Below, one piece after another: positions 1 to 54,747 of a stretch of DNA of 54,747 nt (position 1 is the first letter of the stretch; each line of letters starts with the position of its first letter). Where the stretch lies: IMG/VR virus record IMGVR_UViG_3300037071_003643, positions 1 through 54,747 of that record, one strand, 5' to 3'. Origin of the DNA: a virus. Its lineage: Duplodnaviria > Caudoviricetes. A program made the position numbers and the translations under genes. The notes under the pieces were generated by a model. That model did not search any database and was not told the origin of the DNA. It was given only the letters and a program-made list of their open reading frames with translations.

Positions 1-58
1 AAGAAGGACAAGCGGACCTTCCGCCCAGCACCATCGGCAGTCGCGATCGAGCCCAAAT

Positions 59-151
59 CGCTAGCTTTCGGGGTCCCGAGCGCTAGGTTTCCTCGAGGAA
101 TCGCTAGGGTTCCAGGATCGCGGAGCTTTCCGTCCAACATCGCTAGGTTTC
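59..151 (+). repeat. Direct repeats CGCTAG(C/G)(T/G)TTC, probable terminase-binding (cosB-like) sites
   Basis: CGCTAGCTTTC 59-69, CGCTAGGTTTC 81-91, CGCTAGGGTTC 102-112, degenerate CGGAGCTTTC 121-130, CGCTAGGTTTC 141-151; ~20-22 bp spacing, immediately upstream of terS. Confidence 0.65.
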
Positions 152-10363: not shown

Positions 10364-10369
10364 GGCCAG

Positions 10370-11007: not shown

Positions 11008-11019
11008 TAGGAGCAGCGC

Positions 11020-12531: not shown

Positions 12532-12540
12532 GAGGCCGTC

Positions 12541-13233: not shown

Positions 13234-14852
13234 GCCTCCTCCTGCTACTACGCCCGAAGGCGGCCGGCGGCGACGTCGCGATCACCACCACGACGGTCAA
13301 CGCGACGACCGCCGTAGCCTCGCCGACGACGACCGCTGCGGCGGCGATCGCGACGACGACGGTCAATGGCACCACCGCGATCGCGACTCCGTCCGTGACC
13401 GCTGCTGGACGTCCGACCACGACCACGGTCAACGCCACCACGGCGGTCGCCACGCCGAGTATCAGCGCTGGCGTCTCGATCACGCGGGGAGACGTTCAGG
13501 CCACCACGACCATCCCATCGCCGACCAAGACGGCCGGCGCGTCCGTGACGACGACCACGGTCAACGCGGTCGTGACGATCCCGACGCCTAACATGGCGAG
13601 CAACATCGCGATCACGACGACGACGGTCAACGCCGTCACGTCGGTCGCGACGCCGACCACGACGGCGGGGGCCCGAGCTCCGCCTAACGAGGTCGCCGCC
13701 TTTGCGGCGATCGCGACGCCCGCTATCACCACCAGCGCGTCGGTCACGACGACGACGGTCAACGCGACTACTGCGGTCGATACGCCTACGGTCGTCGTCT
13801 CGGGCGACGTCAATATCACGACTGCTACGGTCGTCGCGGTCGCTTCGATCCCCACACCGACCGTCTCGGCGCAGCAGTTCGTTGCGCTCACGACCACTAC
13901 GGTCAACGCGACGACCGCGATCCCTACTCCGAGCGTCGCCGCTTCGGCGTCGGTCACCACGACCACGATCAACGCGGTCGTCTCGGTCCCGACTCCGACC
14001 GTCACGGCGGTCCGCAACGTCGCGATCACGACGGCGACCGTCTCGACGACTACGGCGGTCGCATCCCCGAGCATCAGCGCGGGCGTCACGCGAACGCCTA
14101 CGACGGTCTCCGCAACCACGGCGATCGCGACGCCGACGACGACCGCGCGAGCGAACGTCACCACCACGACGGTCAACGCGGTTACGACGATCGCCACGCC
14201 GAGTATCTCGGCCGGTATCTCGGTCACGCCGACCACGGTCAATGCGACCACGGCGGTCGCTACTCCGGTCGTCACGGCAGCGGGCCGTCCGACGACGACG
14301 ACGGTCAACGCGACGGTCTCGATCTCGACCCCGACGGTCGCGGCACAGCAGAACCCGGTCGTCACACCGACGACGGTCCTTGCGGTCGCGAGCGTCCCGA
14401 CGCCGACCGTATTCGCGGTGTCGAACGTCTCCATCACGACCTCGACGGTCGCCGCTACAACGAGCATCCCCGGCGCGAGCGTTACGGCGTCGGTAGACGT
14501 GGTGCCGACGACCATCGCCGCTTCGGTCTCGATCGATGCGCCGGACGTCTACGTCACGCAGAACGTCGATATCGAGACCGCGACGGTCGAGGCGTTCGTC
14601 ATCGTCGATGGTGTCGTCGTCGTCACGACCGTCGCGAATCCCGGCTATCCGGTGGATGGCGCGAACGTCACGGTCCTCCCGTCCGGAAACGATGCGGTCG
14701 TGGACGGTAGCTCGGGTCGAACGGCGGCGAGCGTCGAGAACGGAGCTCCGAACGACGCGCTGACGACCAGCGGCGCTGCTCGATCGAGCGTCGATTCGAG
14801 CGGCAGTCCGAATGAAGCCGAGCGGAGGTACACGTGGCAGACTTCTGGATAA
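13230..14852 (+). CDS. Thr/Ala/Val-rich mucin-like repeat protein
   Basis: Many tandem ~22-27 aa units of type TTTTVNATTAVATPSISAG. Confidence 0.75.
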   Translation: MSLLLLLRPKAAGGDVAITTTTVNATTAVASPTTTAAAAIATTTVNGTTAIATPSVTAAGRPTTTTVNATTAVATPSISAGVSITRGDVQATTTIPSPTKTAGASVTTTTVNAVVTIPTPNMASNIAITTTTVNAVTSVATPTTTAGARAPPNEVAAFAAIATPAITTSASVTTTTVNATTAVDTPTVVVSGDVNITTATVVAVASIPTPTVSAQQFVALTTTTVNATTAIPTPSVAASASVTTTTINAVVSVPTPTVTAVRNVAITTATVSTTTAVASPSISAGVTRTPTTVSATTAIATPTTTARANVTTTTVNAVTTIATPSISAGISVTPTTVNATTAVATPVVTAAGRPTTTTVNATVSISTPTVAAQQNPVVTPTTVLAVASVPTPTVFAVSNVSITTSTVAATTSIPGASVTASVDVVPTTIAASVSIDAPDVYVTQNVDIETATVEAFVIVDGVVVVTTVANPGYPVDGANVTVLPSGNDAVVDGSSGRTAASVENGAPNDALTTSGAARSSVDSSGSPNEAERRYTWQTSG

Positions 14853-15196
14853 AGCAGGGGGATAGCAGCCCCAGCTACCGAGCGACCCTCCGCGACGGTG
14901 ACGGCAACGCGGTCGATATCGCTGGAGCAGATGTCAGGTTCCTCATGCGTAGGCAGCGCGGCACGCTCCTCGTCGTCGATGCTGAGGCAGATATCGACCA
15001 GGACGTAGACGGCGACGACGCTCCTATCAACATCGGCCAGGTCCACTACGACTGGCAGGTAGGCGACACCGACGAGGAGGGCGGGTTCCTCGTCGAGTTC
15101 GAGGTCACGTTCGAGGGTAGCCTCATCGAGACGTTCCCGAACGACGGTTACCTCACGGTCGCGATCCTGGAGGACCTGGAGGCCGATGCATCGTGA
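14834..15196 (+). CDS. BppU N-terminal-like virion protein
   Basis: IKQGDSSPSYRATLRDGDGNAVDIAGADVRF...VHYDW...ETFPNDGY. Confidence 0.7.
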   Translation: MADFWIKQGDSSPSYRATLRDGDGNAVDIAGADVRFLMRRQRGTLLVVDAEADIDQDVDGDDAPINIGQVHYDWQVGDTDEEGGFLVEFEVTFEGSLIETFPNDGYLTVAILEDLEADAS

Positions 15197-29913: not shown

Positions 29914-30102
29914 TCAGGAGGCGAATCGACCGCGCACTTGCTCCAGCTCGCGGATCATCTGCCGTAGCCCGTTCGCGACGATGAGCTCCTCGGGTCGATC
30001 GAATCCGGTACGACGCTGAAACTGGTAGCAGGCGGTGCATCGAGCGTTCGCGCGCGAGACTCGACCGCAGTAGGGGTTCGCGCACTTACGAGAGAGGGTC
30101 AA
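29914..30102 (-). CDS. Small Zn-finger protein
   Basis: CANPYC...CTAC. Confidence 0.55.
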   Translation of the reverse strand: MTLSRKCANPYCGRVSRANARCTACYQFQRRTGFDRPEELIVANGLRQMIRELEQVRGRFAS

Positions 30103-31274
30103 CCGTTCTGCTCCATCGCGTCGATCAGCTCGAGGAGGTCCATAGGCTCTGCGCTGGAGTGTAGCGCTTCGTCTACTCGCTCGTCCCAGGATGGTCCAGA
30201 GGCAGCTGGCACCAGGGCCTCGACGATCTCGCTCTGCTCGTCGCTGGCCTCCTGCGGCGTGAGCATGTGCTCGGGACCGATCTCCACGCCGTCGATCTCC
30301 ACGATGGTCTTACCGGTGAAGTCGCTCGCCGGTGGCTCGACGATCTCGGGCTTGCGCAGCCCCTCGTGGCGGCGCGGCCAGTAGTCGGGACGCGGGATCC
30401 ACTCGCCGTTCTCCAGGACCTCGAGACCCATGCCGAAGTCATCGACCTCGGGTAGCGGCTCGCTCTCGTCCTTGCGCTTCAGCGTCTGCTTGAACACGCT
30501 GTAGTCCACGTGGTGATGGTCGCGCCCGAACTTGAACGCGAGCCGTGCGACGTCCGGATGGAGGTCCACGATCATCTGCGACTTCGGCATCGTGCCCTCG
30601 GCCGCGTAGAACGCCTCCGTGTTGCCCCCGCCGATCACCTGCGTCCTGATCTTGTCGGCCAGGAACGCATTGAAGAGGACGGTGCAGAGACCGTCCTTCA
30701 GGATGCGCAGCGAGAGGTCCGTGTCCTCGTTGTAGCGCCCGCGCCACCGGTAATCGACGTCGTTGCGATTCAGTATGCAGGAGTAGATACGGGTGTTCAG
30801 GTAGTACGGCGATCGCGGCGGGACCTTCGAGACGATGAACATGAAGTATTGGAAGCCCGCCTGCCCGATGTTCTCGAAGCGATCGCAGAAGACCTCGGCC
30901 GCACGCATGATCGTCCCGTCGGCCACGGGTGTCTTCAGGTTGCGGTTGAAGCGATGGAAGTTCAGGATGTTGTCGTCCATCACCCAGTGCCACGCGTGAC
31001 CCTCGGCGATCGAGTGCTCCCACACGAAGTTGCGCGCGGGACCCGGGCCCTTCGACTTCGTGTCGCCGAGATCGTCGCACGTGTCGTACTGCCGCTGGTA
31101 TTCGGGATCGAGCACGAGCAGCCGCTCTCTCGGGAGGTACAGCGCGTAGTCCTCCAGCTGCTGCTCTTCCACGACGACACGATACGGGACGCCGATCTTG
31201 TCGAGCGCCTTCGGCGTGAGCATCGTCTTGGCGCGCGACTTCGAGACGATGTAGACCGGTGCGACGGGGTTCAC
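30099..31274 (-). CDS. TAGT/GREB1-like glycosyltransferase, probable DNA base modification
   Basis: VYIVSKSRA, GPGPARNFVWEHS, HWVMDDNI, NTRIYSCIL, RWRGRYNEDTDLSLR, TQVIGGGNT. Confidence 0.82.
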   Translation of the reverse strand: MNPVAPVYIVSKSRAKTMLTPKALDKIGVPYRVVVEEQQLEDYALYLPRERLLVLDPEYQRQYDTCDDLGDTKSKGPGPARNFVWEHSIAEGHAWHWVMDDNILNFHRFNRNLKTPVADGTIMRAAEVFCDRFENIGQAGFQYFMFIVSKVPPRSPYYLNTRIYSCILNRNDVDYRWRGRYNEDTDLSLRILKDGLCTVLFNAFLADKIRTQVIGGGNTEAFYAAEGTMPKSQMIVDLHPDVARLAFKFGRDHHHVDYSVFKQTLKRKDESEPLPEVDDFGMGLEVLENGEWIPRPDYWPRRHEGLRKPEIVEPPASDFTGKTIVEIDGVEIGPEHMLTPQEASDEQSEIVEALVPAASGPSWDERVDEALHSSAEPMDLLELIDAMEQNG

Positions 31275-31441
31275 TGATCGTCTCCCTCAAGGCAGTCGTC
31301 GTGTCGTCGAGCGAATCCGCCGAATACGTCGGCCGCTTGGACGAGTAGCAGCCCGATGGGTAGCGGCTCGCTCGCGCCGCATCGCTTGCACTCCATCTGC
31401 TGCGTGTTCGCGTTCGCGACGGCCCAGGTATTCTCGCTCAT
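31271..31441 (-). CDS. Small Zn-ribbon protein
   Basis: MSENTWAV...CKRCG...HDDC; coupled overlaps. Confidence 0.55.
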   Translation of the reverse strand: MSENTWAVANANTQQMECKRCGASEPLPIGLLLVQAADVFGGFARRHDDCLEGDDQ

Positions 31442-31722
31442 CGCTGCGGCTCCTCGCTGCGGTACTGCTTGTCCACGAACTTCACGTGCTCCAGCTTCGG
31501 GTACCAGATCGACGGCGTGATGCTGTGATCGGTGTTCGCGAGCGATTCCTGCCCGACCAGGATGAGGAAGGCGCGGCGATCGTCCTTGCTCGCGAAGTGC
31601 ACCAGCATCGAGCAGTCGGGTTCGAGTACGTCGTTGGCGTACTCCGGCATGCCCTTCCAGTCGTCGGCCCATCGGTCGTACTCCGAAGCGTCGAACATCC
31701 CGCCCGTGCCCTCATCGCTCAT
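31438..31722 (-). CDS. Small protein of the type found beside phage TAGT genes
   Basis: WKGMPEY...LVHF...F...GQ...SIWYP pattern, recalled from phage TAGT loci. Confidence 0.6.
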   Translation of the reverse strand: MSDEGTGGMFDASEYDRWADDWKGMPEYANDVLEPDCSMLVHFASKDDRRAFLILVGQESLANTDHSITPSIWYPKLEHVKFVDKQYRSEEPQR

Positions 31723-31879
31723 CGCAGTTCTCCCCCTCGACGCACTCGCTGTGATCGTCGGCGTCGTGCTTCGCGAGGATTGCGAACCCGCGCGGGTCGC
31801 CTATCTCGCCGTGTCCCTGGCAGTAGTCGTAGGGATCCCCGCATACGGGGCATCGTCCCACGTACTCCTCTTCCATCAT
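31712..31879 (-). CDS. Small Cys/His-rich hypothetical protein
   Basis: CPVCGDPYDYCQGHG. Confidence 0.5.
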   Translation of the reverse strand: MMEEEYVGRCPVCGDPYDYCQGHGEIGDPRGFAILAKHDADDHSECVEGENCDER

Positions 31880-32061
31880 CGCCAGTATTCTCCCCTCATC
31901 TTGTCGTGCCACTTCGGGCTCCAGCCGATGCATACGCACTTCGAGCATCCCTGGAGGATAGCCCATGTTCCGGCGTTCGTCGTGTGAGCGTGCGCGTCGT
32001 GCTTGCACCTGCAGTTCGGGACCTTCGGCGCATCGAGGCCGAGCTCACGCGTGTCTACCAT
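31876..32061 (-). CDS. Small Cys/His-rich hypothetical protein
   Basis: CRCKH...CSKCVC; coupled overlap. Confidence 0.5.
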   Translation of the reverse strand: MVDTRELGLDAPKVPNCRCKHDAHAHTTNAGTWAILQGCSKCVCIGWSPKWHDKMRGEYWR

Positions 32062-32520
32062 CTAGAGATCGCCGCCCGCGAGCCGCTGCGCCTGCTTCAG
32101 TGCGGTCTCTGCTCGTTCAGCTCTCGTCGCGATCGCGTCCTCATCGCTCGCCTTCCAGGCCTGCTCGTACGGGTCGGCCCCCGGCATCGCCTCGACGAGC
32201 GCCGAGTGCGCCTGGTGCGCGGCATCGACCATCCGATTCACGGCGCGGCCGGCGCGCTCCACCTGAGATCGCGTCCGGTCCTTGCTCTCGGCGAGCGCGG
32301 CGTCCTCGGTCGGCCTGCTGTACTTGATATCGGTTCGACTCCCACCCGCTGCCATCGCTCCCCCGCCGAGCGAGTAGGCGAGATCGTAGGCGTGCGAGTA
32401 GCGAGCGCGGAGCTCCTTGATCATCCGCTCGACCTCGATCAGATCCTCCATGACGACGCGCGGCGATCGCGGGTGCTTCACCGACTTCGCCTTGCGCGTC
32501 GTCTCGCCGTTGTTCGTCAT
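32062..32520 (-). CDS. Hypothetical helical protein
   Basis: MTNNGETT start with GGGGAG RBS; ATGA overlap. Confidence 0.55.
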   Translation of the reverse strand: MTNNGETTRKAKSVKHPRSPRVVMEDLIEVERMIKELRARYSHAYDLAYSLGGGAMAAGGSRTDIKYSRPTEDAALAESKDRTRSQVERAGRAVNRMVDAAHQAHSALVEAMPGADPYEQAWKASDEDAIATRAERAETALKQAQRLAGGDL

Positions 32521-33041
32521 GCTGCTTGTCTCCCCCTGAAGTTGCGGATGATCGCGGCCAGGTCGGGCTCGGGCGCCTTGCCTTTCAGTTCGATCTCCAG
32601 CGCGATCAGATCGCCGTAGAGACCGGGCCACTGCTCCTCGACGAACACCTCCCAGCGCGCTTGGTGATTCGTGAACGCGAAGTGATGTCCGCGGCAGAGC
32701 GTCGTCGAGTTTCCCGGGTTGTCGGGCTCGGGACCGACGTACCAGTGGAGCGCGGGGTGAGCTCCGCGCGATCGGATGTGCGCCCACTCGAGGTCCTGGT
32801 CGGTCCCGCAGTAGCGGCAACGGAGATCGCGGAAGCGCTTCACCCACGTCCCGACCGTGAGATCAGCGACGACGCGAGCGTGCTTCTTGCAGTAGCGCTC
32901 GACGCCCTCCTCGATGACGACCGGCGCCGCGTTCTTGCATACGAGCGACCAGGAGCACGGCTTCCCGGGGCGCGACTTCGCCTTCTTGCTCGACTTCGCC
33001 TTCATCGGCGTCTTGCGCTTGATGGGTTGCGATCGCTTCAC
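32517..33041 (-). CDS. NinG/Rap-like HNH-fold nuclease
   Basis: RDLRCRYCG, EWAHIRSRG, NSTTLCRGHH. Confidence 0.7.
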   Translation of the reverse strand: MKRSQPIKRKTPMKAKSSKKAKSRPGKPCSWSLVCKNAAPVVIEEGVERYCKKHARVVADLTVGTWVKRFRDLRCRYCGTDQDLEWAHIRSRGAHPALHWYVGPEPDNPGNSTTLCRGHHFAFTNHQARWEVFVEEQWPGLYGDLIALEIELKGKAPEPDLAAIIRNFRGRQAA

Positions 33042-33358
33042 GCGTCCACCAGCTGCGCTTCGAGCCAGCGGCGCGCTTCGGCTCTCGTGCTCGCGGCGTT
33101 CCAGCGCTCGAGGAAAGCGTGACGACGGAGCGCGCGTGCTTTATTCGTCTGTCGCTTGCGATACCCGCCCTCCCATACGTGACCGCAGCCGCTGCATTCG
33201 ATCTCCGTGTCGTACCAGACCCAGGCCTGTACCAGGTGGCGAGTACGAACCTCGCAGTAGGGGCAGTAGCTCACAGCTCGGTAGATGAATCCTCGAGGCG
33301 CGCAGATCGCGAGCGTCCCGCTCTCGTTGATAGCGCAGCCGAACCCCGTCTCGCTCAT
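33038..33358 (-). CDS. Zn-ribbon hypothetical protein
   Basis: CPYC...CSGCG; GGGGAGAGG RBS. Confidence 0.55.
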   Translation of the reverse strand: MSETGFGCAINESGTLAICAPRGFIYRAVSYCPYCEVRTRHLVQAWVWYDTEIECSGCGHVWEGGYRKRQTNKARALRRHAFLERWNAASTRAEARRWLEAQLVDA

Positions 33359-33467
33359 CGCCTCTCCCCCGGGTACAGGACCCCGTAGCTGATAATCCAG
33401 AACGCGAGCATCGTACTCCCGAGTAGCAGCCCTATCGCGAAGCCGAGTGCGAACGCTCGATCGCGCT

Positions 33468-34448
33468 TCACTCGTCCTCGGTCCCGGTGGGGTCGGGCGC
33501 GGGGTCGCCTATCTGCGGTTCGTCCGCGGCGACGAAGGCTATCCCACTCTCAGCTTCGTACCACTCGCCTCCTGGGGTCCCGGTGGGGTCGGGCGCGGCG
33601 GGGGGTGCGGCATGATGCCCGCCGTCGTGTCCCACAGGCTTCATGCAGACCATCTCCGCCCCGCAGGTCCCGGTGGGGACGGTGTGCCAGGGGTCGTGAC
33701 AGGGTTCGGACTCCCCGTGTTTCGGCCTGAGCCCTTCTGCTGTCGCCTCGAATACGCTCCCCTGTTCATACAACTGACGGGTCATGCCGTCCCAGGACGC
33801 CTTCTCGTCCTCGCTTACCTCGCCACACGTCGGGCAGGTCGGTGGGGTGGGGTCGGTGTGCCACGGAGGTAGGTCAGCGTGCGTTGCATCGGTCCAGTCG
33901 GCACCGCCGCCGCTATGGGCATCGGTGTGACCCGTAGCTTTAGTGCAGGTGAACGTTTGGTGTTCGAGGGCACGTTCGGTGATGGTGTCGCCGCAAGTCT
34001 TCTCCGGCTCCCCCTCCTCGGAAGCTAGAGCAGCGCGGGCGGCGGATAGGGCAACGCGACCGTCCTTCTGCGCCGCCGCAACTAGCCGCTCGAACATGGT
34101 GGTCCCGGCGTTCTGCGTGTTGTTCAGGACCCATAGCATCGACCCGATGCCCTTCTCGGATTCCTCCAACGCTTCGGTGAGGGATACGACACGGGCCTCG
34201 GCAACGCTGGCACGCCGGGCGTTGTCGCTGGCCTGCTTGTGAACCGCGTCGGCGCTGTGCCTCGCTGCGTCCCTCTCGGCCTCTAGCTTCGTGCTGTCGT
34301 GCAGCATCGCTCGCCATTCGTTGTCGCGCTTCTCAATCTCGGCCTCTAGGGATGCGACGTGGGCGACGGCAAAGCACACGAAGCACCGGCCCCCGGGTTC
34401 GTGTTTGGGATGTGCCCGCATCATCGCCTCGAAGTCCGGCTCGTTCAT
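33468..34448 (-). CDS. Hypothetical coiled-coil protein with Cys/His modules and APDPTGT repeat
   Basis: Start MNEPDF; 23-bp direct repeat at 33480-33502 and 33576-33598. Confidence 0.55.
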   Translation of the reverse strand: MNEPDFEAMMRAHPKHEPGGRCFVCFAVAHVASLEAEIEKRDNEWRAMLHDSTKLEAERDAARHSADAVHKQASDNARRASVAEARVVSLTEALEESEKGIGSMLWVLNNTQNAGTTMFERLVAAAQKDGRVALSAARAALASEEGEPEKTCGDTITERALEHQTFTCTKATGHTDAHSGGGADWTDATHADLPPWHTDPTPPTCPTCGEVSEDEKASWDGMTRQLYEQGSVFEATAEGLRPKHGESEPCHDPWHTVPTGTCGAEMVCMKPVGHDGGHHAAPPAAPDPTGTPGGEWYEAESGIAFVAADEPQIGDPAPDPTGTEDE

Positions 34449-35149
34449 TCGGCCTCCCCTGGGGACGTGGATACGCGGGCGATCGCGAGCAACTGCTCTC
34501 CGATGAAGCGCGTATAGGCGGGCGGGATCGACTCGCTTAGTTCGTGCCCCGTCATCTCCCAGTCCACCCCCATCGCTGCTTTGTGCTCTTCGAGATCGAC
34601 CGCGCCGGTGTAGCCTCCCGAGATCGAGAGGACGCGGAGCGGCGTCGTGCGGTTCCACGCCGGAGGGTAGATGCGCGGGTAGGCGCCATGGATACAGGGC
34701 GGTGCCATCAGTACGACGTTCGACTCGAACTTCCGGTGGCGACGTATCGGGAGACCGAACGACGAGCCGCAGAGCTTGATCGCGTCGATGAGCGGAGCGC
34801 GCGGGACGTTCTCGATGACGTACGGCAATCCCGTACTGCGCAAGATCGTGCGCGTCGGCTCGATCAGGTCGGGATAGTTCTCGCGATTCTTGATCTTGAC
34901 GGCCTGGGAGAACGACTGGCACGGCGGGCTCGCGTGGATCGCCGAGACGGGTCGACCGTCGAACGTCACGACGCCGCTCGCGGGCCCGTCCCAGAGCGCG
35001 GTGAGTTCGAGCGCGTCGCCCTGATAGAACTCGAACGGGTAGTGCGGCTGGGGGTCGAGATCGACGCCGATGACCTCGTAGCCCGCCTGGTGATATCCCA
35101 TCGACGCGCCCCCTGCGCAGCAGAAGAGATCGACGAGGAGCGGCTTCAT
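34445..35149 (-). CDS. Short C5 cytosine DNA methyltransferase (234 aa)
   Basis: Motif I DLFCCAGG, motif IV ASPPCQ, motif VI IENV, RRHR, terminal ESIPPAY. Confidence 0.88.
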   Translation of the reverse strand: MKPLLVDLFCCAGGASMGYHQAGYEVIGVDLDPQPHYPFEFYQGDALELTALWDGPASGVVTFDGRPVSAIHASPPCQSFSQAVKIKNRENYPDLIEPTRTILRSTGLPYVIENVPRAPLIDAIKLCGSSFGLPIRRHRKFESNVVLMAPPCIHGAYPRIYPPAWNRTTPLRVLSISGGYTGAVDLEEHKAAMGVDWEMTGHELSESIPPAYTRFIGEQLLAIARVSTSPGEAE

Positions 35150-36330
35150 GGACGCCACACGGAATCGCGCGAGAGCGTGGCGAACGCCGCGTCGGTCTCC
35201 GGCGTCGAGCTGACGCGATAGTGCTGGTACCACGTGCCGCTGAAGATCGCATCGACGTTGCTGCGGCAGTAGAGGACGAGGATGCCGTCCTTCGCGGCCT
35301 GGACGATCTTCGGTTGCTGAGCGGCCTCGCGACCCTTCTGGTATTCGGGGTCGCGCGGGTCCTCGTGCCACGCCGTCTCCAGGATCGCGGCGGTTCTGCC
35401 TTCCTTCGCGCAGAGAGCGAACAGCTCGTCGGCCATGCCCTTCCCGTCGGCCTGGGTGAAGTCTTGCCACTTCTCGCCGAGGGTCTTGGAGCGATCCTTG
35501 TTCTTCGAGCCGTAGCGGTTGTAGAGATCGGCGGCGAAGGGCGCGTTGGGACCGAACTGGTCGTCAGGGAACGCGAGCCACGCCAGGCCGCGCTTCGCGC
35601 CGTCCTTGTAGTAGGCCTCGGTGAGCGCGGGCCACGTCCAGAGCCCGCCCTGCGCTTCGATCGCGGCGGGTGTGACGCCGACGCTCGCCATGACGTCCAT
35701 CACGTGCTTGGTCATGGCGACGAACCGAGCCGCGCGCTGCGCTTCATCCGGGATCTTCGACAGCTCGTCGTTCTCGGGCTCGTGCTGGATGTTGTGAGCT
35801 GCCAACAGGCCGAGGTCCATGACGGGCTTCAGTACGCCGGTCGCGTACGCCTTGATCTGCGCGTCGTAGGTGCCGCTCGCCACGGCTGCGAAGTCGTACG
35901 GGAGATGCGTCGAGATGTACAGCGGGTCGTTGCGACCCTTCGCGGCCGCGATGCGCGCGAGATCGCCGGAGTCGGTGCCGACCGCGGTCGGGTAGACGCG
36001 CCACATCCAGTGTCGGTCCTTGTTGATGCGCTCCATCTCGGCGATCGTGACGGCGGGGTTGTCGACGCCTCCCTCGCCGGCGACGCCCGACCGGAAGAAC
36101 TGCCCCAGGACGGGCTTGCGCGCCTTCGGGAGCTGCGCTTCCAACTCCTTCACGCGAGCCTCGAGGCGCGCGATCTCGTCGTGCAGTAGCGCGTTCTCCT
36201 CGAGCGCGGCGTCTCGCTCATCGACCGCCGAGAGGAGGAGCTCCTTCGTCGTCGCCAGCTCCGTTTCGAGGTCGTTGATGCGCTTCACTGCAGCGCCGGA
36301 TGCTTTGGTGAGATCGTCCTGAACGGTCAT
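35146..36330 (-). CDS. Coiled coil plus GH26-like glycoside hydrolase domain
   Basis: HEPEND, ADLYNR, ILETAW, VLYCRS pattern of clan GH-A TIM barrels. Confidence 0.6.
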   Translation of the reverse strand: MTVQDDLTKASGAAVKRINDLETELATTKELLLSAVDERDAALEENALLHDEIARLEARVKELEAQLPKARKPVLGQFFRSGVAGEGGVDNPAVTIAEMERINKDRHWMWRVYPTAVGTDSGDLARIAAAKGRNDPLYISTHLPYDFAAVASGTYDAQIKAYATGVLKPVMDLGLLAAHNIQHEPENDELSKIPDEAQRAARFVAMTKHVMDVMASVGVTPAAIEAQGGLWTWPALTEAYYKDGAKRGLAWLAFPDDQFGPNAPFAADLYNRYGSKNKDRSKTLGEKWQDFTQADGKGMADELFALCAKEGRTAAILETAWHEDPRDPEYQKGREAAQQPKIVQAAKDGILVLYCRSNVDAIFSGTWYQHYRVSSTPETDAAFATLSRDSVWRP

Positions 36331-36665
36331 ACCGAAGTCCCTTCCGTCTGTCGGTCGATGATGATGCCGCAGATCGAGCACTCGCGCGCGCCGATCAGCT
36401 GGTGGTGTTGCGCGAGCGCGACGACGACGCCGCTAGGTGAGGGCGCGAGCTGGCGCAGGAGCGCCTCTGTTCGACGAGATGCCCATATCGCGGTCGCTTG
36501 TGCCATCGTCTTGGCGCCGAGCGTAGCCCGTATCGCCGTCGCGTGTGTCCGAACCGTCTCGTTCGAGATGTACAACGCCTCGGAGATCGAGCGCGAGTTG
36601 CCGCCGCGTGCGTACAGTTCGAGGATCTGGATCTGCCGCGGCCCGAGCTGCGCGGCGCCCCTCAT
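36327..36665 (-). CDS. LuxR-type HTH regulator
   Basis: LGPRQIQILELYARGGNSRSISEALYISNETVRTH. Confidence 0.8.
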   Translation of the reverse strand: MRGAAQLGPRQIQILELYARGGNSRSISEALYISNETVRTHATAIRATLGAKTMAQATAIWASRRTEALLRQLAPSPSGVVVALAQHHQLIGARECSICGIIIDRQTEGTSV

Positions 36666-37527: not shown

Positions 37528-38276
37528 ATGCCCTCCTCACGGGCTCGTTCGGCTAGGTCCAGGATGTTACCGACGCCCTTGGCCGAGGAGCCTCGAGCGG
37601 GTAGCGGGCCGTCATCCCAGCACCCGTTGTTGAGCCAGGTCGTGGGGAGCATCGTGTAGCGGGGATCGCGGTTCGGGTCGTCTCGGTAGCGCGACGCTCC
37701 GGCGATGATCACACCGGGATCGACGCCGCGTTTGACCGCGGCCTTGAACTTGGCCTCGGCGCCCAGCTTCTTGTCCCGACGTGGATATTCCCGCCAGAAC
37801 TCGGCGAAGGAATGAGCAGCAACTCGAACAAGATTCAAAGGCTCTTGCTCTTGGGGTAGGGGTAGGGGTTCGGGTAGGGGTTGGGGTAGGGGTAGGGGTA
37901 GGGGGCTATGCTGTTGCTTCCCGTTTGCTACAGCCGTGCTATCCGTTTGCTTTCCCCAACGTACCTGCGCGCCCTTGCGACCTGCCCTGACCTTCGCGTC
38001 GTGCTTCTCTCGACTTTGCGCTAGTACCTCCGCGCGTTGCGGGTTGTATTCGAGGTAGTCGTGGATCGTCGGACCCTTGTCCCAAAGACCCGATCTGGTC
38101 AGCTCGTCTGCTATCGCTGTTCCGTATCTCTCGACGATAGCACGCGGGATAGCACCATCGGTGAGGTTACGGGCGACGTAGCAGAGCGTTTCGACGTAGC
38201 ATCTGAACGCTTGGTCACTGAGATCGACCACCTTCGGAGACTCGGCGAAGCGATCGTCGAGACGGACCCAGCTCAT
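37524..38276 (-). CDS. Phage replication initiator
   Basis: MSWVRLDDRF..SPKV, IHDYLEYNP, PxPxP linker, FAEFWREYPRR, PTTWLNNGCWDD. Confidence 0.8.
   Translation of the reverse strand: MSWVRLDDRFAESPKVVDLSDQAFRCYVETLCYVARNLTDGAIPRAIVERYGTAIADELTRSGLWDKGPTIHDYLEYNPQRAEVLAQSREKHDAKVRAGRKGAQVRWGKQTDSTAVANGKQQHSPLPLPLPQPLPEPLPLPQEQEPLNLVRVAAHSFAEFWREYPRRDKKLGAEAKFKAAVKRGVDPGVIIAGASRYRDDPNRDPRYTMLPTTWLNNGCWDDGPLPARGSSAKGVGNILDLAERAREEGI
37853..37951 (+). repeat. (GGGGTA)n tract plus CCGTTTGCT repeats within initiator; candidate origin
   Basis: Nine G-runs at 37853-37905; CCGTTTGCT at 37921 and 37943. Confidence 0.45.
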
Positions 38277-47086: not shown

Positions 47087-47099
47087 CTCGATCTCCTTC

Positions 47100-47462
47100 C
47101 GTCTCGCTCTCTAAGAGCGTGTCGCTCGTTGCGACTACAGAGAGCGCGAACGACTAGCGCTCGCGCTCTCGAAGTTGAAACGAACTATTGCGGGTCGTTC
47201 TCCGGCTCCATCGGCGACGCTGCCAGGATCGCTGGTGGCTAGTTTCGGACCCGCTCGGACGCGCTCTCTCTTCGGCGCTCGCCGGTATCCCGGCTCGTCT
47301 CTCGACGTCCTCGAGGCTTCACGGCTAGAGCGGTCTCGGCGAGCGTGGCGCGTACTCGCTGAGGTTGGCCTTTAGGCCCCTCGATTCCCTTAGCTCGGGA
47401 GGGCTGTTCTGCGAGGTCCGGAGGGTCTCTCTCGGCGCTTGCCCTGTTCGCTTATTGCGTTA
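47100..47462 (-). ncRNA. Long structured leader or candidate ncRNA
   Basis: ~370 nt between promoter and first gene with no convincing ORF; several stems. Confidence 0.35.
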
Positions 47463-47467
47463 GACGC

Positions 47468-47497
47468 ATCGTAGCAGAAGCGCTAACGCTACGTCTA
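47468..47497 (-). promoter_or_regulatory. Leftward early promoter
   Basis: TAGACG-tagcgttagcgcttctgc-TACGAT, 18-bp spacer. Confidence 0.65.
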
Positions 47498-47601
47498 GTC
47501 TTTCCGCTAACTTTCTGTCCCGACTTTCACGCGGAGTTCCGCCACTTCGCGAGATCGCTCGCGAAACAGTCGTCGTAGAGAGCGGCTAGCAGCGTCGGTT
47601 C

Positions 47602-47630
47602 TCGACGTTCGAGCGCGTCTCTGCTATCGT
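47602..47630 (+). promoter_or_regulatory. Rightward promoter
   Basis: TCGACG-ttcgagcgcgtctctgc-TATCGT, 17-bp spacer. Confidence 0.55.
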
Positions 47631-47753
47631 GCTCGCATCCCGAGAGCGCGATAGCTCTCGACGTGGAACGAGGGGAGGCGATCGAACACAGACCACACCG
47701 TTCGCCGTGGTCGCGCAAGTCGCGCGATCCAACGACCCACGGAGGTGCCACTC

Positions 47754-49925: not shown

Positions 49926-50128
49926 CTGAGCTCCGCGTCGTCGGCGAGACGTCCTGGAGCGGCTGCGCCATCTGCGATCGAGCGGACGAGCACTACCACT
50001 CGATGGAAGAGCTGGGACGCGCGTTCGCCGAGACGACGGGCCTGACGATCCACGATTCCGACTCGCAACGTAACTGGGCAGCCGCGATCGACCTTGGACC
50101 TTCCGTGGACCTTGGACCTTCGGACTGA
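49922..50128 (+). CDS. Small hypothetical protein running into the repeat array
   Basis: GTGA coupling; CAIC...HYH. Confidence 0.45.
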   Translation: MTELRVVGETSWSGCAICDRADEHYHSMEELGRAFAETTGLTIHDSDSQRNWAAAIDLGPSVDLGPSD

Positions 50129-50203
50129 CAGTCGGCTTGGACCTTGGACCTTTGGACCTTGGACCTTGGACCTTGGACCTTGGACCTTGGACCTTGGACC
50201 TTG
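50092..50203 (+). repeat. Tandem heptamer array (TTGGACC)n
   Basis: 7 perfect units at 50152-50200, 2 at 50137-50150, about 3 more at 50094-50118. Confidence 0.95.
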
Positions 50204-50507
50204 CCCGCGTCTCGCGCGCTCGTCTCGATCGACGCTCGCGCGCTCGACGTCGCGATCGCGATCGCGCGCTTCGCTCGCTTCGACGTCTCGCGAGCTTTCG
50301 AGCTTTCGACGATCTCGCGCGCTCGACGCTTCGACGTCGCGATCGCTCGACGCGACTTCGACGCGCTCGAAGATCGACGACGCGCTAGCTCGTCTCGCGC
50401 TCTCTACTAGTAGTCGCTCGACGCGCTCTCTCTAAGCGCTCGTCTCTCGCTCGAACGTACGAGCGCGAAGCGTAAGCTAGAACTAACGCTTTCGTTAGCG
50501 AATACGC

Positions 50508-50536
50508 TAGACGTTCGTTAGCGACTTCGCTAGTCT
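50508..50536 (+). promoter_or_regulatory. Promoter for the 1118-aa ORF
   Basis: TAGACG-ttcgttagcgacttcgc-TAGTCT; near copy of the promoters at 45455 and 47497. Confidence 0.7.
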
Positions 50537-50588
50537 CTCGTTAGTCGCTCGTATCGAGACGAGCGAACGAGAGAAAGAGAGACGAGCC

Positions 50589-53500
50589 ATGATCGAGAAC
50601 GAGAACGAGACGCGAGACGCGATCGAAGCGACGATCGAAGAGCTACGAAGCGAGCGCTACGCGAAGTCGAACGAGCGCGACGCTCGCGACGACGACGTAG
50701 ACGCGATTAGCGAGTCGATCGTAGACGAAGAGACGTACGTCGCGAACGTCGCGAAGCTCTCGAACGTCGAGCGCTTCGACGTCGAAAGCTCGATCGCGTC
50801 GAAGCGCGTCGAGCGCGAGCTAGCTAGTCGCGCGAGCGACGATCTCTCGCGCGAGATTCGCGCGCTCGACGAAGAGATCGAAGAGAAAGTCGCTTATCTC
50901 GCGACGCTCGCGAGCGTCGAACGCGACGTCGCGAGCTACGTCGAAGAGACGCTCGACGACGACGCGCTCGCTCGCGTCGCTCGCGCTTCGCTCGACGACG
51001 CGAAGAGCGAAGAGAGCGACGACGCTTTCGATCGCGAAGAGAGCGACGAAGAGCGCGCGACGCGCGAAGAGATCGAGCGCGAAGAGAACGAGTCGAAGAT
51101 CGACTATCGCGATCTCGACGCTTTCGATCGCGCGTTCGATCGAAGCGACGCTCTCGACGTTCTCGCGAGCGAGCTAGACGCGCTTCGCGATCGCGAGATC
51201 GACGAAGAGCTAGCGCTCTCTCGTTCGCTCGCGATCGTCTACGACGTCGTAAAGAGCGCGCGCGTCGAAGCGACGAACGCTACGAACGTCGCGCGTCGCG
51301 TCGCTCGCGATCGCTTCGACGTCGAGCGCGAAGTCTCGAAGCGCTCGCGCGTCGAAGCTCTCGATCTCGCGCTCTCGATCTTCGAGAGCGTCTACGCGAG
51401 CTACGAATACTCGCGCTACGCGATCGACTTCGAGCGCGTCTACGTCGCTCTCGCGACGATTCGCGACTTCGAGATCGAGAACGAGCGCGACGACGACGAA
51501 GCGACGCTCTCGCTCGAAGAGAGCGACGCGCTCGCTAGCTCGATCGTCTCGAAGAGCGCTTACGAGAACGCGACGACGCGCGAAGAGCGCGACGCTCGCT
51601 CGCTCGCTCGACGCGACGCGATCGCGAACGACGCGAAGCGACGCGAGATCGACTCGACGCTCGAAGAGACGCGCGCGAAGATCGACGAAGCGCGTAAGCG
51701 CTCGATCGCGTTCGCGCGCGAGAGCGAGCGAGCGTTCGAGAACGAGACGAGCGACGCGCTCTCGACGTTCGACGTCGAAGAGTACGCGCGAGACGAAGCG
51801 CGCTACGACGCTTATATCGTCTCGCTCGCTACTCGCGTCGTCGAGACGTTCGACGACGACGCGCTCGACTACGATATCTTCGCGTTCGTCGCTCGCTCGC
51901 TCGACGTCGTAGACGTCGAGAGCGCTCGCGAGAACGAAGCGAGCGAAGAGTATCTCGTCTCTCGCGAGACGTTCGTTAGCGTCGCGAGCGACGTCGTACG
52001 AGTCTCGATCTCGCTCGTCTACGACGAAGCGCTCGAAGAGAACGAAGCGCGCGACGTCGAAGCGATCGTCGCTCGTAAGATCGAAGAGCGCGAGCGCGAA
52101 GAGTTCGCGCGCTCGTTCGAGTTCGTCGATTCGCTCTCGAAGATCGAGCGCGACTACTACGACGCTTTCGAGCGCGACTACTACGAGCGCTACGGCGCTA
52201 ACGAGTACGTAACGACGTCGAGCGACGATATTCTCGGTCGCGTCGTCTACGTAGACGACGATCGAGACGAGACGACGACGCGCGAAGAGCGCGAGAACGA
52301 GACGACGACGCGCGTCTACTTCGAGCGCGATTCGTTCGCGAAGCTCGTTAGCGAGACGACGACGAAGAACGACTCGACGACGCTCGACGAAGCTCGCGCG
52401 CTTATCTCGAAGCTCGAAGCGAGCGTCGCGCTCGTCTCGAAGAGCGACGACGACGAAGCGCTCGACGCTACGCGAGACGAGAGCGAGTACGTCGTCGTAG
52501 AGAACGACGACGCGCGCTCTTACGACGTCGTAGCGCGAGACTCGATCGCGAAGCGCGCGACGCGCTCGTTCGACGACGACGACGACGACGAAAGCGAGAA
52601 CGTCGCGAATAACGACGCGATCGCGACTTACGCGAAAGAGAACGACGTCTCTCTCGCGAGCGCTATCGAGACGTTCGACGTCGTCGAAGAGATCGTCGCG
52701 AACGACGATCGCGTAAGCGACGCGCTCGCTACGAGCGTCGCTCGCGAAGAGCTACGCGAACGCGAGATCGACTTCGACGACGAAGCTCTCTCGAAGCTCG
52801 TAGACGAAGCGATCGCGAAGCGCGACGCGACGACGTACGAGACGAAGCGCGAGAGCGCGCGAGACGTCGCTACGCGAGCGCTCGAAGTCGCGAGCGACGA
52901 AGAGCGCGAAGTCGCGATCGAGATCGAAGCGAAGATCGAGAACGCGCGAGACGTCGAGCGTACGAAGCTCGCGAGAGATCGCGCGCTCGATCGTCTCGAC
53001 GCGCTTACGAGCGCTCGCGAAGTCGTCTACGAGCGACAGTTCGAGCTAGACGAGAGCGAAGAGCGCGACGCTTACGCGCTCGTTCTCGACGATCTCGAAA
53101 GCGCGCTCGACGAAGCGCGCGACGACGTAGACGCGAAGCGCGAACGTCTCGCGTCTCTCTACTTCGTCGAGACGAACGACGACGACGCGAAGAGCGACGA
53201 CGCGAAAGCGAGCGACGCTCTCGAAGCGATCGAGCGCGAGAACGCGAAGATAGACGAAGAGACGAAGCGCGACGACGACGCGACGCGCGAGAGCGCTTCG
53301 ACTTCGTTCGCTCGCGCGATCGCGAGCGCTAACGTCGAATACGCTTACGACGTCGCGTTCGATAACGCGATCGACTTCGAGAACGACGACGACGTAGCTA
53401 TCGACGTCGAAGCGCTTATCGACGATCTCGAAGTCGTCGTCTACGAAGCGTCGCGCGAGATCGAGAACGAGTACGAGCGCGACGTCGTTCGCGAAGTCGT

Positions 53501-53945
53501 CGTCGAGTACGTCGAGACGATTCGCGCGCTAAACGCGACGTCTACGACGAGCGAAGAGACGAAGAGCGCGTCGAGCGTCTCGCTTCGCGACTTCGACGAC
53601 GCGCTACGTATCGAGAACGACGAAGAGCGCGTCGCGAAGCTAACGTCGTTCGCGTCGCGCTCGAAGTCGAAGAGCGATCGAAAGAGCGCGAGCGACGAAG
53701 TCGTGCGCGAGTACGTCGCGAAAGCGCTCGACGATCTCTACGCGAGCGAGATCGAAAGCGCGATCGCGAGCGAGCTAGACGCGAACGACTACGAGAGCGA
53801 CGAAGCGCGACGTATCGCGAAGCGCGAAGCTCTCGTTAGCGCGATCGTCGATACGTCGTCGCTCGCTCTCTACGACGCGAACTACGACGTAGACGAGATC
53901 GAAGAGAACGACGCGCTAGAACGATTCGCGCGCGAGATCGTCTAG
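50589..53945 (+). CDS. Giant acidic protein with restricted alphabet; candidate DNA-mimic anti-defence protein
   Basis: 1118 codons open although TAG/TAA are common in the segment; own promoter, purine-rich RBS, downstream hairpin; function is inference. Confidence 0.8.
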   Translation: MIENENETRDAIEATIEELRSERYAKSNERDARDDDVDAISESIVDEETYVANVAKLSNVERFDVESSIASKRVERELASRASDDLSREIRALDEEIEEKVAYLATLASVERDVASYVEETLDDDALARVARASLDDAKSEESDDAFDREESDEERATREEIEREENESKIDYRDLDAFDRAFDRSDALDVLASELDALRDREIDEELALSRSLAIVYDVVKSARVEATNATNVARRVARDRFDVEREVSKRSRVEALDLALSIFESVYASYEYSRYAIDFERVYVALATIRDFEIENERDDDEATLSLEESDALASSIVSKSAYENATTREERDARSLARRDAIANDAKRREIDSTLEETRAKIDEARKRSIAFARESERAFENETSDALSTFDVEEYARDEARYDAYIVSLATRVVETFDDDALDYDIFAFVARSLDVVDVESARENEASEEYLVSRETFVSVASDVVRVSISLVYDEALEENEARDVEAIVARKIEEREREEFARSFEFVDSLSKIERDYYDAFERDYYERYGANEYVTTSSDDILGRVVYVDDDRDETTTREERENETTTRVYFERDSFAKLVSETTTKNDSTTLDEARALISKLEASVALVSKSDDDEALDATRDESEYVVVENDDARSYDVVARDSIAKRATRSFDDDDDDESENVANNDAIATYAKENDVSLASAIETFDVVEEIVANDDRVSDALATSVAREELREREIDFDDEALSKLVDEAIAKRDATTYETKRESARDVATRALEVASDEEREVAIEIEAKIENARDVERTKLARDRALDRLDALTSAREVVYERQFELDESEERDAYALVLDDLESALDEARDDVDAKRERLASLYFVETNDDDAKSDDAKASDALEAIERENAKIDEETKRDDDATRESASTSFARAIASANVEYAYDVAFDNAIDFENDDDVAIDVEALIDDLEVVVYEASREIENEYERDVVREVVVEYVETIRALNATSTTSEETKSASSVSLRDFDDALRIENDEERVAKLTSFASRSKSKSDRKSASDEVVREYVAKALDDLYASEIESAIASELDANDYESDEARRIAKREALVSAIVDTSSLALYDANYDVDEIEENDALERFAREIV

Positions 53946-53976
53946 CGCGCTCGATCGCGCTAGAACGAGCGAGCTA

Positions 53977-54000
53977 AGAGCGACGCGAGAGCGTCGCTCT
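53977..54000 (+). terminator. Terminator-like hairpin
   Basis: AGAGCGACGC-GAGA-GCGTCGCTCT, 10-bp stem with GNRA loop; no U tract. Confidence 0.55.
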
Positions 54001-54489
54001 CTCGCTGTCTAAGCTCGTCTAAGCGTCGCGCGATACGTCGTTAGTCTCTCGTACTAGCTCGCGCGCTCGACGTCTCTACGTCGCTTAGAGAGCGCTACGC
54101 GCGATCTCGCTTCGCGCTCTCTCGACGTCTCTAAGCGATCGACGCTCGCTCGCGTACGTCTACTCGTCTCGCGATCGCGCGTCGCTTAGACGCGCTCTCG
54201 TAGCGCTACGCGCTCGCTCTCGATCGACGACGCGATCTCGAAGCTCTACGCGCTCGCGCTAGAACGCGCGCTCGATCGTCTCTCGCTCGACGCGCGCTTC
54301 GCTTCGTCGCGCTCTCGATCTCGACGCTACGCGCTCGTCTACGTCGAACGTCTACTCGTACGCGCTCGCTCGCTCGTCTAGCGTAGAGAGCGGCCTAAGC
54401 GACGCTACGACGTCGAGACGCGACGCTCGTACGAGACGCGACGACGCTATCTCGATCGCTTAGAACGCTCGGCCTAAGCCACGAGGCGC

Positions 54490-54548
54490 GAAAGCTAGCG
54501 ACGATTCGACGAAACCTAGCGCTAGCTTCGACGTCGAGAAAGCTAGCG
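54490..54548 (-). repeat. Inverted copies of the left-end repeat
   Basis: GAAAGCTAGCG 54490, GAAACCTAGCG 54511, GAAAGCTAGCG 54538, the reverse complements of CGCTAGSTTTC. Confidence 0.7.
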
Positions 54549-54747
54549 ATACGTATAGCTTCGCGATCGAGAGTAGCTAGCTTCGAGACGTTCGCGAGAT
54601 ACGTTCTAGCGTAAGCGATACGAGAGAACGAGAGATCGTAAGCGACGCTAAGCGACGACGGCCGAGATAGCTTACGTCGTAAGAGATATCCCAGGGCGGG
54701 GTCGAATCTCTCGGTCCGCCGCGCGGGGATCAGCAAGTCTCTCCTTC

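Follow-up and report, generated by a model that had tools for sequence, protein, structure and literature searches.

A 4.2-kb terminal segment of a soil phage genome nearly devoid of CA, CC, GG and TG steps, carrying a single 1118-codon gene

Dinucleotide suppression is known from CpG and UpA depletion in vertebrate viruses and from repeat-induced point mutation (RIP) in fungi. Restriction-site avoidance in phages is ordinarily partial and genome-wide, and concerns 4-6-bp words. At the leading end of T7, gene 0.3 encodes Ocr, which like ArdA is a small (~120-170 aa) acidic DNA-mimic anti-restriction protein of a defined family. In lambda, the right end, which is packaged last, enters the cell first. 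The first-step-transfer DNA takes up 7.9% of the T5 genome, a repeat-rich stop signal marking its limit, and is the only part on which EcoRI and clustered regularly interspaced short palindromic repeats (CRISPR) act (10.1101/866236). The DNA analysed here is one IMG/VR virus record of 54,747 bp (IMGVR_UViG_3300037071_003643; its whole length is called the window). Near its right end, a segment extending from 50207 to 54391 (4185 nt, 4184 steps) is almost free of the dinucleotides CA, CC, GG and TG. These four are called forbidden steps below, their avoidance is called the rule, and the remainder of the phage genome is called the body.

Dinucleotides were counted over the whole window. The segment contains two CA, one CC, two GG and three TG, i.e. 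8 forbidden steps (observed/expected 0.00-0.01), whereas positions 1-50206 contain 2376 CA, 3678 CC, 4002 GG and 2254 TG, which make up 24.5% of the dinucleotides there. At the rate of 1-50206, about 1026 forbidden steps were expected in the segment. The count per 1-kb bin was 188-287 throughout 1-50000 and fell to 0, 2 and 2 in the bins starting at 51001, 52001 and 53001. The three widest gaps between forbidden steps within the segment measure 1604, 801 and 667 nt, and none elsewhere in the window is wider than 43 nt. Since CA/TG and CC/GG are complementary pairs, the rule is strand-symmetric. Under it, 76% of all hexamers cannot occur, and among GC-rich hexamers the share is 91%. The exceptions occupy six sites: the start-codon context gCCATG of the only gene (50587-50590) and five isolated steps (GG at 52194 and 52236, CA at 53037, TG at 53704 and 54006). 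The left border is abrupt, with the final forbidden step at 50205, immediately 3' of a tandem array of the heptamer GGACCTT. An earlier, sequence-only reading of this DNA had described the near-absence of the four dinucleotides, about six exceptional sites in ~4.2 kb, the strand symmetry, the abrupt left boundary and the compliance of the non-coding flanks. It was found to be correct at every point that could be checked.

The flanks of the gene obey the rule with no exception on the 5' side and one on the 3' side (Table 1). In its last 180 nt, the 5' flank is TA-rich and contains three TANNNT hexamers (50473, 50503 and 50531), then a GG-free purine tract (GAGAGAAAGAGAGA) before the ATG. The hexamers and the purine tract are a candidate promoter and ribosome-binding site. 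A scan with the sigma-70 consensus gave no promoter site in the segment, and the terminator scan of the segment gave two terminator-like matches, both on the minus strand and inside the open reading frame (ORF). The motif (T)CTAAGC is repeated in the 3' flank. Nine of the 11 copies of CTAAGC in the window lie in 53946-54747; six of the seven copies of TCTAAGC lie in the last 800 nt and the seventh is at 50431, in the 5' flank of the large ORF. TCTAAGC looks like a flank-specific repeated site. In the relaxed zone that follows the segment, two of the three GGCC sit in an identical 10-mer (CGGCCTAAGC), 79 nt apart. The motifs CGTTAGCG and CGGCCTAAGC were considered as specific elements and set aside, their specificity not being clear.

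Table 1. Position, strand and main characteristics of the features of the window
Feature	Coordinates	Strand	Characteristics
Direct repeats of TCGCTAGSTTTC, four copies	58..151	+	Directly upstream of the small terminase gene (164-625)
TET-associated (TAGT) family glycosyltransferase	30099..31274	-	Pfam PF20691, E 3e-40
Compact C5 cytosine DNA methyltransferase, 234 aa	34445..35149	-	PF00145, E 9e-6; phrog_363, E 1e-41
(GGACCTT)n tandem array	50090..50203	+	Tandem Repeats Finder: period 7, 17.0 copies
Non-coding 5' flank	50207..50588		Rule obeyed, 0 forbidden steps to 50586; pyrimidine-rich start
Single ORF, 1118 codons	50589..53945	+	Acidic, mostly helical orphan protein
Non-coding 3' flank	53946..54391		One exception (TG at 54006); pyrimidine-rich; repeated (T)CTAAGC motifs
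Relaxed zone	54392..54689		10 forbidden steps in 298 nt, mostly three GGCC (54392, 54471, 54660)
Inverted copies of TCGCTAGSTTTC, three	54490..54549	-	Same motif as the left-end repeats
Right end	54690..54747		58 nt, normal composition, 17 forbidden steps; putative cos-proximal

The ORF of the segment has no internal in-frame stop, against 11-33 in each of the five other frames, and its G+C at codon positions 1, 2 and 3 (0.68/0.38/0.80) is like that of other phage genes. Random sequences were generated with three full-segment Markov models (500 simulations each) and one flank-only model (500 simulations). The stop-free run around the ORF, 1144 codons, is longer than any in these 2000 simulations, whose maxima were 391-844. 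A chance open frame was therefore rejected and the ORF is a real gene. As TG is part of each of the start codons ATG, GTG and TTG, DNA under this rule leaves room for the start of a single gene. A self-comparison of the segment gave only low-complexity similarity of 60-80%, and a repeat-domain structure was rejected.

Codon choice in the ORF depends on the next base. After a codon ending in C, the next base is always G or T (GAC 127/127, CGC 86/86, ATC 47/47), and the T-ending synonym is used before A, C or T (GAT, 22 of 22 cases). GAG is never found before G (0/102), and G comes next after 57 of the 67 GAA. The dipeptides of Ala or Thr with a following Ala, Asp, Glu, Val or Gly were never observed, against 78.5 (Ala) and 27.5 (Thr) expected, total 106, because no allowed Ala or Thr codon can precede G. 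GCC, CTG, GTG, ACC, TCC and CGG are almost absent from the ORF (GTG occurs once); their steps are common in the rest of the phage. Within the rule, GC-rich codons are preferred: TTA and TTT do not occur, and AGA, ATA and AAT occur once each. The protein sequence is thus subordinate to the DNA constraint, and the gene looks maintained and adapted. Since the flanks comply, the synonyms follow the next base and whole dipeptide classes are absent, the target of selection is the DNA rather than the protein, which bears out what the sequence-only reading had concluded from the flanks. Codon usage alone is ruled out by the compliant flanks and by a codon choice that is set by the first base of the next codon.

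Apart from two Gly, one Gln and the start Met, the protein (1118 aa) contains only 13 amino acids (E, A, D, R, S, V, L, T, I, Y, K, N and F). With 169 Glu, 149 Asp, 114 Arg and 37 Lys, it has 28% Asp+Glu and about 167 more acidic than basic residues. The AlphaFold single-sequence model is mostly made of helices, with a mean predicted local distance difference test score (pLDDT) of 43 and no confident fold. No family match was obtained in Pfam (E <= 0.01), PHROGs (E <= 0.001), NCBIfam or PADLOC. A phmmer search of 1.84 billion representative proteins returned only the protein itself, and no relative of it was found in the ESM Atlas or the viral contig collection. For the segment and its protein, blastn and tblastn found no relative in 50,697 phage records, and for the segment blastn found none in 72,556 plasmids. 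As with Ocr and ArdA, a gene that would enter first encodes a very acidic protein; unlike them, it has 1118 aa, no family match and a model with the low pLDDT given above. That it works as a DNA mimic is a guess.

The base composition of the segment was compared with that left by known mutational processes. CpG is enriched 2.44-fold and GA and TC about 2.1-fold, TA stands at an observed/expected ratio of 0.96, and G+C is 62% versus 65% in the body. As in CpG/UpA depletion and RIP, dinucleotides as such are affected, in coding and non-coding DNA. In contrast to the present case, those processes operate across a genome or on repeats, have partial effects, and reduce CpG or G+C. RIP or hypermutation by a deaminase was rejected on the TpA and G+C values and on the intact 1118-codon frame. 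A more general form of the same idea is a mutational sink, in which editing or repair limited to the terminus destroys C-A and C-C on both strands in every cycle, until no target is left, and selection merely keeps the frame open. Such a sink would give a rule uniform over coding and non-coding DNA and sharp borders, and the few exceptions do resemble isolated point changes. Rule-obeying DNA also has chance open frames (mean ~290 codons in the simulations), and a gene could easily arise or persist in it. We nevertheless hold the sink to be improbable. C-to-T editing would raise TA and lower G+C, and since about 63% of the C of the body stand before G or T, simple deamination predicts a G+C of ~41%. 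The preference for high-GC codons persists within the rule, the loss of seven allowed palindromes described below would be left unexplained, and no deaminase or reverse transcriptase domain was found in the domain scans of the phage ORFs.

Public sequencing runs were used to check that the segment exists. Six soil metagenome runs (2020) contain the stretch, and three of the six contain all the sampled words and may be its source. No RNA run is among those listed. In the assembly of run X1, a contig of 14,710 nt (depth 149.2) ends at 50181, and a contig of 4565 nt (depth 143.2) is identical to 50174-54737 with 0 differences. Both terminate inside the same heptamer array, whose k-mer depth of 440-550 fits a single locus of that copy number. 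In runs X4, X5 and X6, short contigs that leave parts of the stretch uncovered were found over both parts (depth 2-4 versus 2-4), with 0 differences in the pieces listed. The ratio of segment to body is 1 : 1 across a ~40-fold range of abundance in four runs. The sequence-only reading had left room for an assembly or synthetic artefact; read support is present, in an independent contig and at a depth matching that of the body. Variants were seen in two runs. Run X4 contains variant contigs near 54420-54600 (depth 2-3), and run X5 contains one low-depth contig with a C>T change at 52259, which is synonymous, would create a TG and may be an error.

A chimeric join through a shared repeat, or synthetic or spike-in DNA, would agree with the designed look of the sequence and with a protein that has no relative among 1.84 billion representatives. 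The join passes through a perfect repeat, and the 50181-50207 junction is bridged by no listed k=31 contig, so that the join across the array rests on the original assembly and on indirect arguments. These arguments are the matching depths in four runs over the ~40-fold range of abundance, the end of both X1 contigs in the same rare array with a k-mer depth fitting one locus, the recurrence of the left-end repeat TCGCTAGSTTTC in inverted orientation at the far end of the segment, the avoidance of the same palindromes and the same codon-position G+C in segment and body, and the presence of the DNA in six soil runs. The segment is natural DNA that belongs to the phage, and a chimeric or synthetic origin is very unlikely.

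The ends of the record were then examined. The 12-mer TCGCTAGSTTTC has 10 matches in the window at <=1 mismatch versus 0.47 expected, a number reached by 0 of 100 shuffles, and 7 of the 10 are at the two ends. These repeats are probably terminase or cos-region binding sites. When base 54747 is joined to base 1, the inverted repeat CCTTC-AA-GAAGG is formed. The independent X1 contig halts at 54737, i.e. <=10 nt from the right end of the record. For all 5 closest relatives of the large terminase subunit TerL (58-70% identity), the contigs begin 0.5-1.4 kb upstream of TerL, a shared start that is unlikely for randomly broken contigs (~0.0015, a rough product of uniform-placement odds). IMG/VR classes the record as linear, with no end repeats, and a self-search of the window found no second copy of the segment; no terminal direct repeat was found. 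We infer from the starts of the TerL-relative contigs, the stop of the X1 contig and the repeat formed at the joined ends that the record is a complete or nearly complete cos-type genome, despite a CheckV completeness of 63%. The segment, the relaxed zone and the last 58 nt form the right-terminal 8.3% of the record. A pattern search for the end repeats gave two loci, both unrelated.

The heptamer array forms the left border of the segment and is followed by a 380-nt untranslated stretch. Its last ~10 copies are perfect, 12 exact copies lie in 50096-50202, and 3 of the 7 steps of each unit are of the forbidden kind. All 19 exact copies of GGACCTT in the window are on the + strand, against 3.5 expected by chance; seven of them lie outside the array, at 14, 16994, 29207, 30821, 32019, 45190 and 46136, the first being 14 nt from the left end. 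GGACCTT could be an oriented binding or polarity motif. A pattern search for the array gave 13 loci, none depleted. A structure in the array was rejected, its fold being no better than that of shuffles (z -0.83), and an Rfam search gave no RNA family, the only matches (E 0.2 and 0.75) being far below the gathering scores.

These elements bear on a cis-acting or physical role of the DNA end, for instance in packaging termination, ejection, replication or recombination, or dense binding of a phage protein, the ORF then being secondary. CA/TG and CC/GG are structurally distinctive base steps. The terminal position, the terminase-site-like and (T)CTAAGC repeats of the 3' part and the heptamer array at the border speak for such a role, which we regard as having a small chance of being right. 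Packaging and ejection signals are not known to reach 4.5 kb in length or to operate on dinucleotides. Neither the fold of the array nor the RNA family search supports it, the purge of palindromes matches a pattern of restriction avoidance, and related terminase loci are without such a stretch. The latter were fetched via TerL and neighbour genes (37 viral loci, plus 2 viral, 3 genome and 1 metagenome loci), and the depletion scan covered forty of them (all except L059, L060 and L066). No depleted window was found; the lowest count per 300 nt was 43 forbidden steps among the 37 TerL loci, and not below 67 in the three genome loci.

A second layer of avoidance was found in palindromic hexamers that the rule allows. 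CTCGAG, GTCGAC, TTCGAA, ACGCGT, GAGCTC, ATCGAT and AGATCT are all absent from the segment, although the Markov expectations are 12.8, 10.1, 7.9, 6.3, 5.8, 4.6 and 3.3, respectively (sum ~51). The tetramer TCGA occurs 147 times in the segment, and CGATCG, TCGCGA and CGCGCG occur 37-43 times, as expected. The body avoids several of the same words: TTCGAA was found 0 times versus 14.3 expected, ATCGAT 4 versus 42.4, AGATCT 2 versus 15.4, GTCGAC 9 versus 49.5 and CTCGAG 36 versus 71.1 (z from -3.4 to -5.9). Over 1-50089, avoidance is strong for AGATCT and for each of the four NTCGAN palindromes, though TCGA itself is at expectation (669 versus 676). Among the 41 palindromic hexamers with an expectation of at least 5 in the body, none of the eight most avoided contains any of the four steps, and of the 22 that do contain them, 0 have a z below -1.9. 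When all 1028 testable hexamers are ranked, 14 of the 30 with the strongest under-representation lack the steps, versus 17.5% overall (Fisher p 1.7e-4). The loss of palindromes is a signature of restriction avoidance, which is complete in the segment and confined to step-free words in the body. Like restriction-site avoidance in other phages, it brings short palindromes below the Markov expectation in both parts. What differs is that 4 of the 16 dinucleotides are near-absolutely excluded in one 4.2-kb block. The confinement to step-free palindromes in the body had been predicted beforehand from the view that sites with the steps are shielded there, and it is expected if the four steps are so shielded. 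Two other explanations were rejected. AAG is a type I-E protospacer-adjacent motif (PAM); it is enriched (111 versus 62 expected), and avoidance of CRISPR PAMs would remove only those of the CC/GG type. A modification of every C of the segment, with CG or CT as target, is at odds with the body, where ATCGAT, GTCGAC, CTCGAG and AGATCT are avoided, so that such sites look unshielded.

According to the sequence-only reading, the segment must lack a target motif, either for the phage's own base modification or for host defence systems. This is still the best reading of the data, although the mechanism itself was not demonstrated. The form of it that we tentatively prefer is a natural 'stealth leader' that would enter the cell first: the avoided steps would be the targets of the phage's own modification, and the leader, remaining unmodified, would escape modification-dependent nucleases. 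By analogy with lambda, and given the place of TerS and TerL at the opposite end, this right-terminal DNA would be the last to be packaged and the first to be injected. The C-A and C-C steps on both strands and the seven further palindromic hexamers would be removed by purifying selection at the DNA level, and enzymes with short motifs would thus be unable to mark or cut the leader. The likeliest reader of the steps would be a post-replicative cytosine modification of the phage, made by the compact C5 methyltransferase and the DNA glycosyltransferase. The bulk of the genome would be modified at C[A/C]-type steps, and sites with those steps would be shielded there from classical restriction. 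The unmodified leader would be invisible to modification-dependent (type IV) nucleases and would have to carry no host restriction site. Its single giant gene would need only one TG-containing start codon, and the acidic helical protein, presumably the first to be made, would counter host defences. As for the (GGACCTT)n array, it would either delimit the leader or cause a pause in entry, comparable to that at the T5 injection stop region.

This first-entry reading is suggested by the terminal position, by the two layers of avoidance and by the T5 precedent. The resemblance to the T5 first-step-transfer region consists in a terminal ~8% of the genome (7.9% in T5, 8.3% here), a repeat-rich untranslated inner border and, presumably, a special pressure to lack targets. 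Unlike T5, the present genome has no terminal direct repeat that we could find, its ORF matches none of the T5 pre-early families (A1/A2/dmp), it has one giant gene in place of many small ones, and four dinucleotides are avoided instead of a few 6-bp sites. Two-step entry is carried over from T5 as an analogy.

The genes that could supply the modification are present. The methyltransferase has the motifs DLFCCAGG, PPCQ and ENV, recognized by eye, and a very small target-recognition region. The TAGT glycosyltransferase is encoded about 3 kb away on the same strand. Among the phage matches listed for the latter, identity is 48-57% over 67-74% of the length, and several are in T4-like Aeromonas phages, where they are annotated by the authors of the records as beta-glucosyl-HMC-alpha-glucosyltransferase. 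The couple of a C5 methyltransferase and a TAGT glycosyltransferase recalls the clusters of C5 methyltransferase, 5mYOX and glycosyltransferase genes, whose pathway enzymes are reported to read only 2-3 nt. The targets of phage TET-associated C5 methyltransferases are GpC[C/T] or GpC in any context (PMC8256090), and phage thymine dioxygenases prefer NTC or NTG (PMC13229309). The inference of the sequence-only reading thus gains from the two genes and from the published enzymes with 2-3-nt targets, and loses from what is set out below on enzymes specific for C[A/C] and on the dioxygenase.

Several points weigh against the leader reading. We know of no enzyme with C[A/C] specificity, and none was found in the accessible text of the literature on phage modification enzymes, where the specificities are GpC[C/T], NTC and NTG. 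A GpC[C/T] methyltransferase as the sole cause was rejected, as 166 GCT and 360 GCG remain in the segment. No dioxygenase of the TET/5mYOX type (Tet_JBP, 2OG oxygenase) and no hydroxymethylase was found with Pfam, PHROGs or NCBIfam in the ORFs scanned, so that the pathway to a glycosylated base is incomplete; a divergent dioxygenase is possible. The methyltransferase family is common in actinophages and is not TET-specific. The body is somewhat poorer in CC and CA than most of the related loci compared, and a protective mark accounts for this no better than an external pressure on the whole genome would. The contrast between palindromes could also come from the particular restriction systems of the hosts and from a greater statistical power for the commoner step-free words. 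The CheckV value and the unbridged junction count on the same side. Finally, we infer the order of injection, the staged entry, the modification with its specificity and the function of the protein from the features above, injection polarity and staged entry being argued only by analogy with lambda and T5.

The same leader logic could apply with a nuclease as the reader, either a host or competitor defence that cuts or senses very short C-A/C-C motifs or a phage nuclease that destroys host DNA early, a role proposed for A1 of T5. The first-entering DNA would then lack every target, and the remaining genome would be protected later or enter later. This version is unlikely in our estimation, but several observations speak for it. 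The body shows a milder bias in the same direction, with rho values of 0.72 for CC, 0.81 for CA, 1.38 for CG and 1.51 for GA, versus ~0.9, 1.0, 1.15 and 1.25 in most of 39 related loci. The bias is stronger still in L023 (IMGVR_UViG_3300045996_000132, 13,037 nt), a distant relative by its TerL (45% identity), where rho is 0.61 for CC, 0.58 for CA, 1.62 for CG and 1.66 for GA, which hints that the pressure may not be unique to this phage. Restriction-type palindromes are fully purged from the segment, the rule extends to the non-coding flanks, as it should if every cut were lethal, and an HNH_2 endonuclease gene is located ~1.4 kb beyond the methyltransferase gene, with one ORF between. To our knowledge, no defence system or nuclease has dinucleotide specificity, which counts against this version. 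With so short a target, a host enzyme would require protection of the host's own genome at about one-quarter of all steps. The PADLOC models match only the methyltransferase and nothing else in or beside the segment, and staged entry is again an analogy. In favour of this version, the first-step DNA of T5 is argued to lack the sites of a phage nuclease that degrades host DNA (10.1101/866236).

The gene content of the record suggests a cos-type siphophage with actinophage-like genes. The genes for TerS (the small terminase subunit, Pfam E 4e-26), TerL, portal, capsid and tail proteins and a lysin domain are on the + strand, TerS and TerL spanning 164-2375. The genes for an ERF recombinase, a replication initiator, helix-turn-helix and LuxR-type regulators, the HNH_2 nuclease, the C5 methyltransferase and the TAGT glycosyltransferase are on the - strand. 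The host is probably a high-GC actinobacterium, because the nearest TerL copies in genomes are in metagenome-assembled genomes (MAGs) of Micromonosporaceae and Streptosporangiaceae and because copies of the methyltransferase are found in actinophages; one further TerL copy is in a Paludibaculum MAG. The methyltransferase belongs to a very large family (~220 aa), 7945 of 8000 candidates scoring at E <= 1e-5, and copies with ~50% identity were found in 314 phage records, mostly of Mycobacterium, Streptomyces, Arthrobacter and Gordonia phages.

The two modification genes stand in a row on the - strand (30099-36381) that comprises a 411-aa protein with a coiled coil and NEP and ETAW motifs, the 234-aa C5 methyltransferase, a 332-aa Cys/His-rich protein, the HNH_2 nuclease, small ORFs and the TAGT glycosyltransferase. 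This row may be a DNA-modification or restriction-like module without a recognizable dioxygenase. The neighbour with the NEP and ETAW motifs (P0002) is glycosidase-like by eye; a single relative of it was found. In the Pfam scan of 43 pooled ORFs, Glyco_transf_7C (twice), Glyco_tranf_2_2, Gly_transf_sug, Glyphos_transf and Methyltransf_24/11/25 were also matched, at a location guessed to be ~8000-15000 on the + strand. These further glycosyltransferase and methyltransferase domains may serve virion glycosylation. A tandem hexamer (GGGGTA, 8.7 copies, 37853-37904, + strand) lies in the region of the replication-initiator gene. The intergenic region 47090-47700, between divergent operons, contains the longest stretches free of the four steps outside the segment (38 nt at 47138-47176), and also the longest alternating (A/C)(G/T) runs outside it (21, 19 and 18 nt).

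No description of a motif-free genome segment was found in the literature by a keyword search, which was not exhaustive. Sequence and pattern searches found no relative of the segment, of the protein or of the architecture in the phage, plasmid, viral-contig, genome and metagenome collections covered. The closest analogy in mechanism is the T5 first-step region combined with site avoidance. As nothing alike was found in these databases or by the keyword search, we rate the phenomenon itself as new. A constraint acting at the DNA level and the natural origin of the segment are established; the mechanism is a proposal.

A near-absolute local ban on 4 of the 16 dinucleotides over 4.2 kb implies an agent that reads DNA at dinucleotide resolution. 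We know of no bacterial defence that reads dinucleotides; the nearest approach is made by some phage modification enzymes described recently. With 1118 residues, 13 amino acids, no Pro, Gly only twice and forbidden classes of dipeptides, the gene amounts to an experiment of nature on reduced alphabets. DNA that obeys the rule also offers a model for the design of cloning or delivery DNA that largely escapes restriction. It is plausible, if short of an even chance, that soil actinophages face or use a DNA reader of a single base step (CA or CC, read on either strand), and that this phage has answered it with a dedicated first-entry module written in a 12-dinucleotide alphabet, which forces a protein of 13 amino acids with forbidden dipeptides. 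If the leader reading is true, it would mean staged genome entry in an actinophage, a new kind of early counter-defence protein and a modification that targets exactly the avoided steps. It would also mean that a large, presumably functional natural protein has evolved under a reduced alphabet imposed by DNA, and would add a new layer, at dinucleotide resolution, to the conflict between phages and their hosts.

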